From assembly GCA_035374585.1 (NCBI GenBank), contig DAOSPF010000006.1:5408-69407 (forward strand): 64,000 nt of DNA. The letters are read 5' to 3'. Origin of the DNA: Bacteroidales bacterium (GTDB lineage Bacteria > Bacteroidota > Bacteroidia > Bacteroidales > DTGW01). Below are positions 1 through 11,462 of the stretch, one piece after another. The notes under the pieces were generated by a model. That model worked only from the letters and a program-made list of their open reading frames with translations. It did no database searches and was not told the origin of the DNA. A program made the translations under genes and the position numbers. Position 1 is the first letter of the stretch. Each line of letters starts with the position of its first letter.

Positions 1-302
1 GGACGGGGGCGATGGATACTATATTTCAAAATAGTTGCAATAATTGCTGTCGTTGTAACTGAAACTGCCACATATACCGAACGCTGGCGGGCATCAATGT
101 TTTTTCTGCGGAAAGCAATTACTAATAACAAAACTGCCAATCCATAAGCCACAGTTGATGCGGAGTCGGTAATGACCCTGAAAACACCGTCGAGATTTTT
201 ATTGCGGTTCAGGTTGATATCTTTCAATATGTCGATATCAATATTTTGGGAGTATAGTACTATTGGAGAAAGTAGCAATAAAAATATAAGATATTTCTTC
301 AT
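1..302 (-). CDS. PAP2-family phosphatase, N-terminal part (ORF runs off window start)
   Basis: ATG at 302..300 on the minus strand, open to position 1. It translates MKKYLIFLLLLSPIVLYSQNIDIDILKDINLNRNKNLDGVFRVITDSAS..., a signal peptide followed by the LxxINxxRNxxLD-type N-terminus I associate with Bacteroidota PAP2 phosphatases. It is absent from the ORF track because it is truncated. Confidence 0.5.
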   Translation of the reverse strand, partial: MKKYLIFLLLLSPIVLYSQNIDIDILKDINLNRNKNLDGVFRVITDSASTVAYGLAVLLLVIAFRRKNIDARQRSVYVAVSVTTTAIIATILKYSIHRPR

Positions 303-450: not shown

Positions 451-1614
451 TTAATTCAAATTTTTAGAAGATAGTTTAACGAATAACGGAACAGATGCCA
501 GTTGCATTACTACCGAGAACGCAATTAGCCATATAATAGACATATCATATAGCCAGCCCATTAAAAAGCTTCCCAGAAACCAGAATAAGCCAAAAACTGC
601 ATTAAAAACCCCAAACCCGGTTGCTTTTTTATCGGCGGGCAATATGGATGACAGGACAGCCCTTACGACAGATTCCTGTGCAGCCATGCCCACGCCCCAG
701 CAAACCATTCCGGCTATGGCTGTGTAAAAATTGCCCATAAATACTAACGGGGCAAACAATAAAGATAGCAATGTACTGCCAATAAGTACTTTTATACCAT
801 GTTTATCAAACAACCTGCCCAGCAACAAAGCGGCCAATGCATCGACACCCATTGCAATGGCATACATTACAGGAATCCATTGGGTAGTAACCTGTCCGGT
901 TTTGTTAAAGTGGAATGCTATAAGCGGATAATCTGCAAACCCCGCAGCAATAAGCGATACGGCTGCCAGATAAATCCAGTAAAACTTTTTTGGAAAAACA
1001 AGTTTTGGCATGTTGTTTTTATCTTCCAAATGTTCGGTCCTTGGGTAGTTTAGCCTTGCAACAACCAATATTGTTAAGGCTATTAAGGCCGGGATAAGTA
1101 ATATCCCGAATGATTTAGCGTAATTGCCCGAAAAGAAAAACACAGCGCCAACGATAATTGGCCCTGTAACTGCCCCTATCTGGTCGAGCGCTTCATGCAC
1201 GCCAAAAGCCTTACCATGACCTATTGAAGACGAGGCATGAGAAAGCATCACATCTCTTGCAGGGTTACGGATAGCCCTTCCGGTGCGTTCCAGAATCATT
1301 AACACGGCTGCTATCTGCCAATTTCCGGCAAGGGCAAGTGCCGGTACTGCTAAAAGGTTGATGGCATAACCGACAAATGTTATAGTCCAGTATTGCTTTG
1401 TTTTGTCAGCAATAATACCAGAGGCTAACCGAATGGTATAACCCATGAGTTCGCCAAAACCGGCAATAAACCCGACAACTGTTGCGCTTGCCCCTAATAT
1501 GCCCAGAAACTGGCCTGTAATAGCCCGTGCCCCTTCATGGGTCATATCAGAAAACAGGCTGACAATGCCAATAAGTAATACAAAAGCCCAGGGAGTTTTT
1601 TTTATAAACTTCAT
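451..1614 (-). CDS. MFS transporter (unknown substrate)
   Basis: 387 aa, about 12 predicted hydrophobic helices. The N-terminus has FSDMTHEGARAITGQFLG, typical of one MFS subfamily. It lies downstream of fluoride riboswitch copy 2. Confidence 0.85.
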   Translation of the reverse strand: MKFIKKTPWAFVLLIGIVSLFSDMTHEGARAITGQFLGILGASATVVGFIAGFGELMGYTIRLASGIIADKTKQYWTITFVGYAINLLAVPALALAGNWQIAAVLMILERTGRAIRNPARDVMLSHASSSIGHGKAFGVHEALDQIGAVTGPIIVGAVFFFSGNYAKSFGILLIPALIALTILVVARLNYPRTEHLEDKNNMPKLVFPKKFYWIYLAAVSLIAAGFADYPLIAFHFNKTGQVTTQWIPVMYAIAMGVDALAALLLGRLFDKHGIKVLIGSTLLSLLFAPLVFMGNFYTAIAGMVCWGVGMAAQESVVRAVLSSILPADKKATGFGVFNAVFGLFWFLGSFLMGWLYDMSIIWLIAFSVVMQLASVPLFVKLSSKNLN

Positions 1615-1632
1615 TTTCTTTACTTCATTTTG

Positions 1633-1854
1633 TTATACAATAAAAAATGCTGGTTTAATTGGAAGCAAAGTATTTTGCCCCAAAATTATGGTTGACCGAA
1701 GATGCTCATGGAGCATGATGAAGAAAAACATAAAACCATCAAGCTGACAAGTATGCAATACAATAACAGCAGGTGCCTTTATGACCCTGTGAAGGCTCTT
1801 GGCCTTGTAAGTGAACGAAAATAAAATGACAAAATTATCAACAATAGATATCAT
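1633..1854 (-). CDS. hypothetical 73-aa ORF directly after fluoride riboswitch 2 (coding status uncertain)
   Basis: The ATG at 1854 lies 3 nt beyond the base of the hairpin that overlaps the 3' end of the aptamer. The stop at 1633 is 18 nt before the MFS start. I recognise no family similarity, and a plus-strand ORF overlaps it. Confidence 0.25.
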   Translation of the reverse strand: MISIVDNFVILFSFTYKAKSLHRVIKAPAVIVLHTCQLDGFMFFFIMLHEHLRSTIILGQNTLLPIKPAFFIV

Positions 1855-1881
1855 AAATGACTGGTTTTAATAAAATTAAAA

Positions 1882-1931
1882 CTACAGGAGTCATCAGTCA
1901 TTTACGACAATTCAAGGTGAACCCCATCACC
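1882..1931 (-). promoter_or_regulatory. fluoride riboswitch (crcB motif), copy 2
   Basis: The minus strand reads GGUGAUGGGGUUCACCUUGAAUUGUCGUAAAUGACUGAUGACUCCUGUAG. It matches the conserved GGnGAUGGnGUUCnCC ... CUGAUGAnUCCU core of fluoride aptamers. A hairpin follows (CUG-GUUUUAAU/AUUAAAAC-CAG) that recruits the aptamer 3' end. Confidence 0.75.
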
Positions 1932-1939
1932 ACACAAGA

Positions 1940-1947
1940 CAAAGGTA
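1940..1947 (-). promoter_or_regulatory. Bacteroidota -7 promoter box TACCTTTG for riboswitch 2
   Basis: TACCTTTG (TAnnTTTG consensus) lies 6 nt upstream of the aptamer. The same box and spacing occur at riboswitch 1. A second TAAATTTG box sits at 1947..1954. Confidence 0.45.
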
Positions 1948-1991
1948 CAAATTTATAATTTTGAAAAATGGATGTTGTTGTTAAAAAGAGC

Positions 1992-2028
1992 TAAAAATGC
2001 GCGGAAATTTTCACTGAAGCTTCCGCGC
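1992..2028 (-). terminator. intrinsic terminator after eno
   Basis: 8-bp GC-rich stem GCGCGGAA/TTCCGCGC (1999..2028), followed on the minus strand by AUUUUU. It lies 9 nt after the eno stop. Confidence 0.6.
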
Positions 2029-3644: not shown

Positions 3645-5153
3645 TTATATTCCAGCATCGGGATTGTCAAATATCTTGTTGTACAAATCCTTTCCAAAGC
3701 TGGTTTGCAGTGGTTCCCCTTCGACCAGCTTAAAGGTCCGCGCCCCGTCAGCTTGTCTCTCAGCCCTGAGGAACAAGGCATTTTCTAACTTTCTAACGTA
3801 AAAACTTTGGGCAAAATCGTACAAATGGGTGACAAAAAAAACTTTTACCCCCTTTTCTATTAAGGCATTTACTATTTGTCTCCCTATTTCGGAGCCTTCT
3901 CTTTCGTTGGTGGCTGCAAACGACTCGTTAAAGAGGATCATGGAATGTGATGATAAATTGTCGGCAATGCTGCTCATCCTGCTTAGTTCTTCATCAAGTT
4001 TTCCGCTGTTCATGGCCGAATCTTCTTCTCTTTTGAAATGAGAAAACAACTGGCTACAGGTATTAGCCGAAAAAGAAGCGGCAGGTACAAACATCCCGCA
4101 CTGCATCATCAGTTGGGCAAGGCCAATACTCCGCAAAAAAGTAGATTTGCCTCCCTGGTTTGCCCCGGTAATTATCACCAGGTTTTTGTTTTCGGCTATA
4201 GCATCATTGGCCACTACCTTTTGTTTCATAGCCAAAGCGAGGGATACATCATACAAGCCGCGAAAAACGTGTGTTCGAAGGTGCCCAGGCAAGGGTTGGG
4301 GAAACGAGCAATCAGCCCCCAGGCTGGCAAGCTGTCCGTGCAAATTCAAACAACCTGTGTAGAAGGCTATTTCAGTCTTTAACATACTGAAAAAGCTGAA
4401 AATGTGTTCCATAGATTGTGCAAGGGCATTGGCTACAACATTGACCCCCTCGTCTTTTATTTCCCTCAATGCCCTTGCCCCGCTCTCGTCGCGTGGATGG
4501 ACATTGAAAGTGTATCCTGGCTTTTTGCGCGGAAAAAGCATTTGCACCCATCCTTGTTTTTGTTGAGGGAGCTTGCAAAGCTGGTAAGGGTAGCCTTTGT
4601 TTCCTTTTCCCAGTTGGGTGTTGAACAAAGCCCCATCGTGAAACTCAAGTTCTTTGATATGTTTCCAGGCTTCAGCCATAAAATCTTCATCCAACTCTTT
4701 TTGGAGCATTGCAAAAAACCTGGAAAAGCCCTTTGATTGAAAATGAGAGGCATGTTCATCTGCCAGCGCTTTTAATTGTTTGAGATAACCCAGCAAATCT
4801 TTCAAGGAAGCAATAGAGCTATAAAGTACCGATGATGGTGATGATGAAAGAAACCACCAATGTTCGTTCCTTGACAATAGGGCTTCGGTGGACAACCTGT
4901 ATATTTCCCTAACTACAAGTTGGTTTTCAATGCTATCTTTCAGGATGTCCTGGCGGTATAATATGGTTTCAATATCATTGAATGTGCCTGACAGGAGAGC
5001 TTCTTTAGCTATTTTGTAGATAAATTCATCGCCCGAAGCCATTGTGGCAAATAATGTCCCCAATTCTAAGTCTTGAACCAATGCAGCGCTGTTCGGCAGA
5101 AGTTTCTTCCGGGTTTCAAAATTATCTTTTTCGAACATCAGAAAAACTTTCAT
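3645..5153 (-). CDS. MutS-related ATPase (domain V only; no mismatch-binding or Smr domain), paralog B
   Basis: 502 aa. Walker A GANQGGKSTFLRSIG and MutS-type block MILFNESFAATNEREG. The helical N-terminal part lacks MutS domains I and II. Confidence 0.85.
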   Translation of the reverse strand: MKVFLMFEKDNFETRKKLLPNSAALVQDLELGTLFATMASGDEFIYKIAKEALLSGTFNDIETILYRQDILKDSIENQLVVREIYRLSTEALLSRNEHWWFLSSSPSSVLYSSIASLKDLLGYLKQLKALADEHASHFQSKGFSRFFAMLQKELDEDFMAEAWKHIKELEFHDGALFNTQLGKGNKGYPYQLCKLPQQKQGWVQMLFPRKKPGYTFNVHPRDESGARALREIKDEGVNVVANALAQSMEHIFSFFSMLKTEIAFYTGCLNLHGQLASLGADCSFPQPLPGHLRTHVFRGLYDVSLALAMKQKVVANDAIAENKNLVIITGANQGGKSTFLRSIGLAQLMMQCGMFVPAASFSANTCSQLFSHFKREEDSAMNSGKLDEELSRMSSIADNLSSHSMILFNESFAATNEREGSEIGRQIVNALIEKGVKVFFVTHLYDFAQSFYVRKLENALFLRAERQADGARTFKLVEGEPLQTSFGKDLYNKIFDNPDAGI

Positions 5154-10984: not shown

Positions 10985-11362
10985 TTATATTATTTTAGTG
11001 ATTAGGTTTCCCAAATAAGTGGCCAAAATGCCAATAAAAACACTCAGGCTTGTATATAAAGCAAAATAGAAAATATTACCATCGCGAAGCAGCGCAACAT
11101 TCTCGTTGGCAAAAGTCGAAAATGTAGTAAACCCGCCACAAAAGCCAACCGTCAGGAACATGCGCAACTCTGAAGACATCGCGTTGCCCCGTTCTGAAAT
11201 GCCATAAAACAACCCAATAAGAAAGCAGCCAAGAATGTTGACAACAAATGTTCCGTAAGGAAAAGACGCAATAAAGGTATTTTGAATAAAACGTGAAGTA
11301 AGAAAACGTGAGATGCCCCCCAGGAAACTCCCCGAACCAATAAACAAAAGTATTTTTATCAT
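10985..11362 (-). CDS. crcB: fluoride channel CrcB/FluC
   Basis: 125 aa, 4 [12 protein letters not shown]...[12 protein letters not shown] are CrcB signatures. It is immediately downstream of riboswitch 1. Confidence 0.93.
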
Positions 11363-11400
11363 ATATCCTGCATACTTTAAGGTTAAACAATAAAGTCATA

Positions 11401-11448
11401 CAGGAGTTATCAGCTTATTTAAGGCGGTTCGAGGCTAACCCCATAGCC
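11401..11448 (-). promoter_or_regulatory. fluoride riboswitch (crcB motif), copy 1
   Basis: The minus strand reads GGCUAUGGGGUUAGCCUCGAACCGCCUUAAAUAAGCUGAUAACUCCUG, ending 38 nt before the crcB AUG. The segment in between can form UCCUG...ACUUUA/UAAAGU...CAGGA, which competes for the aptamer 3' strand. Confidence 0.85.
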
Positions 11449-11454
11449 AGACAC

Positions 11455-11462
11455 CAAAGGTA
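11455..11462 (-). promoter_or_regulatory. Bacteroidota -7 promoter box TACCTTTG for riboswitch 1
   Basis: TACCTTTG lies 6 nt upstream of the aptamer 5' GG and just downstream of the preceding gene's stop (11472). Confidence 0.45.

Follow-up and report, generated by a model that had tools for sequence, protein, structure and literature searches.

A second fluoride riboswitch with a predicted start-codon-burying platform ahead of a major facilitator gene in a Bacteroidales fluoride-defence cluster

We analysed a 64,000-nucleotide stretch of DNA from a Bacteroidales bacterium (assembly GCA_035374585.1, contig DAOSPF010000006.1, positions 5,408 to 69,407; called the window here), in which the enolase gene (eno) of a fluoride-defence cluster is followed by a gene for a transporter of the major facilitator superfamily (MFS). 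Between these two genes lies a module made up of a promoter-like box, a fluoride aptamer, which we call FRS2, an alternative helix and a leader open reading frame (ORF) of 73 codons (Table 1). With moderate confidence, we read this module as a working fluoride 'ON' riboswitch, transcribed as a unit of its own. It would gate the start codon of the leader ORF and in this way govern the MFS gene, and probably also the PAP2 gene that comes next.

FRS2 was matched by the Rfam covariance model of the fluoride family (RF01734) over its full length (positions 1 to 64 of 64) with 44.0 bits against a gathering score of 34 (E = 6.4e-09), which bears out the second fluoride aptamer that a preliminary description of this DNA had proposed. 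The only other Rfam match in the window was FRS1, ahead of crcB (48.5 bits), and a permissive local Rfam scan of positions 300-2100 found FRS2 again and no other RNA family at E <= 1. A covariance model that we built ourselves (R1) gave FRS2 63.7 bits. In the alignment to RF01734, P1 is formed by GGUG/CACC and P3 by GUCG/UGAC, and the conserved core GAUGGnGUU and CUGAUGACUCCU is intact. The GGGG strand in the P1 loop is complementary to the CUCC strand in the 3' tail, a putative pseudoknot that the Rfam model does not score. Covariation of the pseudoknot was seen only in the other lineage, where GGGG/CUCC of FRS1 stands against GGAA/UUCC of its orthologue in locus L109. This is a compensatory double change (AUGGGGUU...ACUCCU in FRS1, AUGGAAUU...AUUCCU in L109 465-527), and the crcB leader platform of the two is likewise conserved. 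We consider FRS2 a genuine second fluoride riboswitch with predicted ligand binding; both its class and the kind of regulon around it are known.

The minimum-energy fold pairs the two helix arms of Table 1 over 15 of 15 standard pairs (-20.5 kcal/mol). None of 200 shuffled sequences folded as well, and the z score lay between -5.5 and -5.8. The helix takes up P3 and junction nucleotides, so that it and the folded aptamer are mutually exclusive. Since it also holds the AUG at 1852-1854, this geometry implies ON logic: platform and aptamer compete for the same nucleotides, and the ORF and the MFS gene follow in the same direction. The preliminary description had drawn an alternative hairpin, CUG-GUUUUAAU/AUUAAAAC-CAG. 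It was right that the 3' part of the aptamer is drawn into an alternative structure near the start of the ORF, but the hairpin that it drew is only the inner part of the 15-bp helix, and its base does not stop 3 nt before the ATG, because the full helix covers the start codon.

From this AUG the ORF runs for 73 codons to a TAA at 1633-1635 and is separated from the MFS ATG (1612-1614) by exactly 18 nt, CAAAAUGAAGUAAAGAAA; both the ORF and the gap are where the preliminary description had placed them. The frame stays open for 72 further codons after the AUG in a sequence of 32% G+C, a length reached in 148 of 20000 shuffles (0.7%). As the AUG lies inside the helix and is inherited from related platforms, and as the frame ends so close to the MFS start, the ORF is probably a switch-gated leader ORF whose translation, rather than its product, matters for MFS expression.

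The relatedness of the platform is seen in sister switches on related Bacteroidales metagenome contigs (L089 and L121 at 419-481, L090 at 4174-4242). FRS2 and its platform match the L121 switch at 78 of 102 nt (E = 6e-17), and the match continues through the inner hairpin and CAGUCAUUUAUGA into the codons of the ORF. The sister switches have the TAnnTTTG box, the GUC...UGAC P3 and an inner hairpin followed by CAGUCAUUUAUG, and all share with the window the arrangement AAAUGACUG, hairpin, CAGUCAUUUAUG. The 12-mer CAGTCATTTATG in the 3' arm occurs only in the window, L089, L121 and L090. In L090 the platform AUG is the start of a dynamin-like GTPase, with the P-loop motif LFKRGKSS at the normal distance (4174-4635). 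In L121, and in the same way in L089, it is the first codon of a 22-codon ORF, and 9 nt after the stop of this ORF comes a 75-aa ORF for a hydrophobic product (503-808 for the two ORFs), followed by genes for a Na/H exchanger, USP and MutS; the 75-aa product has only three near-identical relatives and is restricted to its lineage. Dynamin-like genes also follow fluoride switches in L003, L032 and L069.

The platforms of L090, L121 and the window fold to the same helix, and that of the window is longer by 6 bp, precisely over the AUG. At the site of the inner hairpin L090 has a hairpin of different sequence and only 3 pairs are predicted in L121. No U-rich tail follows the helix in L090, so the AUG, and not a terminator tail, is the feature that is common to the three platforms after the helix. 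A cassette of box, aptamer, helix and AUG thus appears to be present in three gene contexts, judging from these alignments and folds. In crcB leaders of L001, L082 and L118, the 3' tail ACCAUAAA of the aptamer pairs with UUUAUGGU, which includes the crcB start codon. The platforms of these Bacteroidales seem as a rule to mask the start codon and not a Shine-Dalgarno sequence.

The box TACCTTTG precedes both aptamers of the window, at FRS1 in positions 11455-11462(-). The preliminary description was right about the shared box and wrong about the same spacing of exactly 6 nt: box and P1 are separated by GUGUCU (6 nt) in the first copy and by UCUUGUGU (8 nt) in the second, and the coordinates of the description itself also yield 8. 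A second -7-like match, TAAATTTG, adjoins the box at 1948-1955(-). The motif TAnnTTTG was found 92 times in the whole window against 95 expected, and since this is chance frequency a single match is weak evidence by itself. The motif was, in addition, found 5-10 nt upstream of P1 in eight of nine Bacteroidota fluoride riboswitches compared, including both sister switches (the exception being L109), a position that supports a promoter starting transcription almost at the aptamer. Upstream of the box, as the preliminary description had it, lies a terminator of eno, a stem of 9 pairs (1999-2028, -14.4 kcal/mol) followed by AUUUUUA; a simple terminator scanner did not call it, probably because its 14-nt loop is above the loop limit of the scanner. 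It is plausible, from the position of the box, that promoter activity and a start site belong to FRS2, and equally plausible that the module, after the eno terminator and with a -7 box directly upstream of the aptamer, heads an independent, fluoride-controlled unit with the MFS gene.

In the mechanism that we propose, transcription would start a few nucleotides after the TACCTTTG box, just past the eno terminator. When fluoride is absent, the 15-bp helix would form, leaving the aptamer unfolded and the AUG buried. Fluoride would allow the aptamer to dock through P3 and the pseudoknot, which would free the 3' arm and let ribosomes initiate at the AUG. The 73-codon, non-conserved ORF would then be translated to 18 nt before the MFS AUG, and the signal relayed to the MFS gene. 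For this relay, ribosomes on the leader of ~260 nt could shield it from being terminated early (Rho-type termination), could prevent the MFS start region from closing, or could re-initiate.

Several observations weigh against this reading. Two conserved positions of the FRS2 junction differ from the consensus (AAUUG for AACCG), and the helix core is identical in all copies, so that it has no support from covariation. The codon-usage score of the ORF (0.059) is intermediate between the null distribution (-0.06 +/- 0.08) and that of real genes (0.195 +/- 0.08). The helix, in which 4 of 15 pairs are G-C, is followed by UCUAUUGU, with 5 U in 8, a tail that may leave room for a transcription-termination mode. 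The helix and its tail could then form an intrinsic terminator that is blocked by fluoride, in an untranslated leader where T-rich sequence after an inherited AUG has yielded the ORF as a by-product. Such attenuation is the leading alternative to our reading, possible though rather unlikely. Aptamer and terminator overlap in many fluoride riboswitches (Weinberg et al., 2010, PMC2864571), a clear terminator case is found in L100 (GGGAGUCAUUUUUAUUU), and an ORF that is not gene-like in its codon score and has no homologues fits a by-product. The terminator scanner, however, did not call the site, the homologous L090 platform lacks the U-rich tail and its AUG is the start of a real gene, the helix of the window reaches 6 bp past those of the relatives to cover just this AUG, and chance would seldom leave a frame open from there to 18 nt short of the MFS gene.

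The RNA data also count on this side, though they are compatible with the predicted start site as well as with its absence. Two metatranscriptome runs gave identical contigs, with sparse, low-depth coverage of the cluster. An RNA contig of 250 nt from the variant strain described below (1923-2172, depth 2.5) runs from the 3' end of eno over the terminator and the promoter box into the aptamer, of which it covers the first 18 nt; it may reflect eno read-through or DNA carry-over. No RNA end was found at the predicted start (~1933-1937), and no RNA contig on the MFS gene, in the sparse, low-depth coverage from these two runs. Two further matches to the Bacteroidota -7 consensus, TAATTTTG, lie in the leader at 1830-1837 and 1681-1688(-), and the latter, 67 nt upstream of the MFS AUG, could be an internal promoter that is independent of the switch. 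These two sites are 9-nt direct repeats of each other and inverted repeats with 1955-1963. The module could be read as a relic, with the MFS gene expressed by eno read-through under FRS1 or from an internal promoter such as that at 1681-1688. We regard this as improbable. The contig across the terminator, the extra boxes and the altered junction nucleotides speak for it, as does the expression of the MFS gene of relatives from upstream across a similar hairpin. The aptamer, however, is still 10 bits over the threshold, the helix is perfect and unchanged in the variant strain while adjacent positions vary, and any transcript reading through from eno would include the switch and remain under its control.

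We then turn to the variation of the leader and to the product of its ORF. The leader was present, essentially unchanged, in many sludge and digester metagenomes, and nearly all contigs were identical. A variant strain (X10) has three changes in 1775-1942, none of them in the aptamer or the helix arms. Two of these, at 1872 and 1875, affect the loop and the closing pair of the inner hairpin, and the third is a non-synonymous change in codon 7 of the ORF (N7K); one strain with three changes is too few for a substitution analysis of selection on the ORF. A phmmer search of 1.84 billion representative proteins found no homologue of the 73-aa product, the matches being the product itself and a repetitive 553-aa protein over 26 residues, and no Pfam or NCBIfam family matched. 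Comparison with the small 75-aa product of L121 gave no significant similarity (E = 0.2 over 6 residues).

It is very improbable that the 73-aa product is a functional, fluoride-induced small hydrophobic protein that is co-expressed with the MFS transporter. This would fit its switch-gated start codon, its hydrophobicity (GRAVY 0.96), its annotation by gene callers in another assembly (L087) and the presence of a hydrophobic 75-aa ORF behind the same type of switch in L121. Hydrophobicity is, however, expected from T-rich sequence, the ORF is absent from the closest MFS relatives, the L121 product is dissimilar and itself nearly without relatives, and the only variant seen alters an amino acid. 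Of the two options left by the preliminary description, a long leader or a real fluoride-induced peptide, the second is not supported, given the lack of homologues and families and the N7K change, and the first comes closer, with the addition that the leader is probably translated. We also considered the leader as the remnant of a decayed gene and rejected this, as all ORFs of at least 40 aa in 130 loci and in the window, compared by tblastn with 1615-1878, produced nothing above noise. In relatives, blastn matched eno and the MFS gene and left the leader unmatched.

Comparison of the eno-MFS junction across relatives showed that the module was inserted there. The closest relatives of the MFS gene (~86% DNA and 87-94% protein identity) have no switch between eno and the MFS gene. 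Their junction consists of a GGGGG...CCCCC hairpin and a T run after the eno stop, with the MFS start ~20 nt later and the two genes ~50 nt apart, and it is free of a switch in Bacteroidales and in an Ignavibacteria genome; one relative has CLC and DUF190 genes between eno and the MFS gene. The 430-nt insert of the window is shared only by a further assembly of its own species, which is 99.84% identical over 3180 nt. The absence of the module from the relatives indicates a discrete insertion that would give the MFS gene its own control. Among loci with enough upstream sequence, a fluoride riboswitch is found further upstream in L001, L082-L084 and L003, ahead of crcB or a Na/H exchanger gene; none was found in the sequence stretches examined for L081 and L085. 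The order eno, hairpin, MFS without a switch indicates that the MFS gene was already in a fluoride operon and was rewired in the window. The preliminary description had the transporter recruited to the fluoride regulon, and this does not hold, as the orthologue already follows eno in riboswitch-led operons of the closest relatives and the family is linked to riboswitches across phyla.

Its proposal that the cassette was duplicated from the first copy fares no better. Over the aptamer and flanks, FRS2 is 57% identical to FRS1, 65% to the switches of L121 and L089 and 61% to that of L090, and FRS1 is 75% identical to the crcB-type switch of L109, which indicates two separate riboswitch lineages. 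The sister switches of FRS2 lie beside the orthologous MFS gene but immediately downstream of it, where they head the GTPase gene or the 22-codon ORF, whereas the cassette of the window is upstream.

A 10-nt direct repeat, AAAAUGAAGU, occurs at 1622-1631 and 1608-1617(-), at the junction of leader and MFS gene. The first copy forms a two-codon mini-ORF, AUG-AAG-UAA, right after the stop of the 73-codon ORF, and the second holds the MFS start; the first copy is also the site of a metagenome variant, 1631 T>C (+ strand). As a speculation, the repeat may be a recombination or microhomology scar of the insertion. In L084 (2501-2944) only N- and C-terminal fragments of the riboswitch-operon enolase are left, fused into 147 aa, in what looks like a decayed eno; the MFS gene behind it is intact.

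The MFS protein has a canonical 12-helix fold, and its MFS_1 match (PF07690) of 81.5 bits compares with a cut-off of 33.4. Pfam found MFS_1 only and no CRCB or Voltage_CLC domain, the domains of Fluc/CrcB and CLC-F. The named MFS subfamilies (DHA1, Tet and LtaA among them) were not reached, the best NCBIfam score being 33 against 475 bits, and a sequence profile search found no chain of the Protein Data Bank at E <= 0.001. An AlphaFold2 model (pLDDT, the predicted local distance difference test, 86.1) gave TM (template modelling) scores of 0.72-0.79 in Foldseek to NorA, MdfA and VMAT at 12-18% identity, with ~0.75 for NorA and MdfA. Assignment of a substrate from structure was set aside, as these neighbours are only generic MFS folds.

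The family is unusually well conserved, being 50-60% identical across many bacterial phyla, Bacteroidota, Chloroflexota and Planctomycetota included, and archaea. Among 80 loci, one per species and drawn from many phyla including archaea, ~21 had a fluoride aptamer within 4 kb of the MFS-family gene by our own covariance model, and Rfam at its gathering score confirmed the aptamer in all 20 loci that were re-tested. By our own rough estimate, at 1-3 switches per genome, well under 1% of random 8-kb windows would hold one. In most linked loci the switch heads a co-directional operon that contains the MFS gene or ends in it. The partner genes encode Na/H exchangers (5), enolase (3), DUF190 (3), CrcB (3), dynamin-like proteins (3), USP (2), MutS-V (2), CLC (1) and DUF6062 (1).

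The MFS orthologues of other phyla (for example L003 of Ignavibacteria, L057 of Ginsengibacter, L030 of Deltaproteobacteria, L037 and L100) resemble that of the window in sequence (50-88% identity), in being co-directional with Rfam-level switches and in having crcB, DUF190, eno, Na/H exchanger, MutS and dynamin genes alongside. Unlike in the window, the MFS gene there is mostly the distal member, and where a switch controls it directly the leader measures 120-190 nt and lacks a long ORF. A switch directly upstream of the MFS gene, with a second one directly downstream, was seen in L037 (Freyarchaeota) and L100/L101. Bracketing by two switches, the downstream one heading the next gene, was seen in several phyla (L016 1144-2716, L037 1454-3039, L100 920-2420, L003 1756-5284, L030 387-5251 and L089 1-3195); in such cases the MFS gene is the last of one fluoride unit and abuts the next. 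Since the MFS gene usually lies beside crcB or CLC-F and does not replace them, an accessory function is more likely for its product than that of main fluoride exporter. No description of a link between this family and fluoride riboswitches was found in the searchable literature (fluoride riboswitch with MFS or major facilitator), and a 2026 preprint on divergent fluoride switches does not mention the family.

The class to which FRS2 belongs is the crcB motif, RF01734 (Weinberg et al., 2010, PMC2864571), and a fluoride 'super-regulon' of crcB, CLC-F, eno, Na/H exchanger, USP and MutS has been described (PMC7266159). FRS2 agrees with its class in the full-length covariance match, with P1, P3 and pseudoknot strands, in its place in the 5' leader of a co-directional gene, in an alternative structure that overlaps the 3' half of the aptamer with ON logic, and in lying within the super-regulon. 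It differs in its cargo, an MFS transporter and neither Fluc nor CLC-F, in a platform that buries an AUG and no Shine-Dalgarno sequence, and in the 73-codon orphan ORF that begins with this AUG, ~240 nt before the start of the cargo gene. The fluoride riboswitch class is reportedly the subject of a paper by Baker and colleagues in Science in 2012. Examples of the class are the transcriptional switch of Bacillus cereus crcB and the translational switch of Pseudomonas syringae eriC. Bacteroidota largely lack Shine-Dalgarno-led initiation, which fits the burial of an AUG.

Riboswitches that act through leader translation and Rho-dependent polarity include the flavin mononucleotide (FMN) switch of Escherichia coli ribB and the Mg2+ switch of Salmonella mgtA with its leader ORF mgtL. 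Like these, FRS2 would have a ligand-controlled start site in a long leader and a downstream gene that depends on leader translation. In contrast to them, a role of Rho at FRS2 is only one proposal, and the leader ORF of the window far exceeds classical leader peptides in length and takes up nearly all of the leader.

The cluster in which the module lies reads, on the minus strand, FRS1, crcB, a 122-aa ORF, then genes for a Na/H exchanger, USP, CYTH, an Hsp70-like protein, a HAD-like protein, MutS-V and a second MutS-V, followed by eno (Pfam and NCBIfam); after eno come the terminator, FRS2, the 73-codon ORF, the MFS gene and the PAP2 gene. The 122-aa ORF sits where relatives have DUF190. The order eno-MFS-PAP2-PAP2-EamA is kept in the closest relatives (L081, L085, L086 and L084), with dynamin-like or MutS genes beyond. 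The MFS and PAP2 genes are 148 nt apart in the window; in those relatives the PAP2 start comes directly after the MFS stop.

Table 1. Features of the two fluoride riboswitch units, with positions in the window.
Feature	Position	Strand	Description
PAP2-family phosphatase gene, 5' part	3..302	-	83% DNA identity to PAP2 of L085; conserved neighbour downstream of MFS
MFS transporter, 387 aa	451..1614	-	Pfam MFS_1 81.5 bits; ATG 1612-1614
Leader ORF (orphan), 73 codons	1633..1854	-	starts at platform AUG
Helix 3' arm, CAGUCAUUUAUGAUA	1849..1863	-	holds ORF start codon 1852-1854
Inner hairpin, GUUUUAAU-UUU-AUUAAAAC	1864..1882	-	enclosed by anti-aptamer helix
FRS2 aptamer	1878..1940	-	P1 1928-1931/1916-1919; P3 1905-1908/1897-1900; pseudoknot strands GGGG 1922-1925 and CUCC 1887-1890
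Helix 5' arm, UGUCGUAAAUGACUG	1895..1909	-	all of P3 (both strands and loop) and start of conserved CUGAUGA; inverted repeat I1
-7 box, TACCTTTG	1940..1947	-	Bacteroidota type; 8 nt upstream of P1
eno intrinsic terminator	1992..2028	-	stem GCGCGGAAG...UUUCCGCGC, then AUUUUUA
eno, enolase, 426 aa	2037..3317	-	Pfam Enolase_C 3.5e-122, Enolase_N 8.5e-57
crcB	10985-11362		separate gene (NCBIfam)
FRS1 and operon	11394..11457	-	heads crcB...MutS-MutS; Rfam 48.5 bits, Pfam, NCBIfam

Taken together, these results describe a genuine rewiring, of a fairly ordinary sort, in a fluoride-defence gene cluster that is already known. The window adds a clean case of an uncharacterised MFS family in the fluoride response, here with a dedicated fluoride switch, and an example of how riboswitch control can be rewired, with a cassette that brings its own start codon and putative promoter found in three different gene settings among relatives. 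It also suggests how a riboswitch that masks a start codon could control a gene ~240 nt away by way of a leader ORF. More tentatively, and with considerable doubt on our part, the box, aptamer, helix and AUG may form a portable cassette in Bacteroidales poor in Shine-Dalgarno sequences, whose gated AUG either becomes the start of a gene or opens an arbitrary leader ORF whose translation relays the fluoride signal to the next gene; the window would then hold a transplant of it before a pan-prokaryotic MFS gene. If this were true, fluoride defence would have, in addition to Fluc and CLC-F, a third transporter arm that has gone unrecognised, namely the MFS family.

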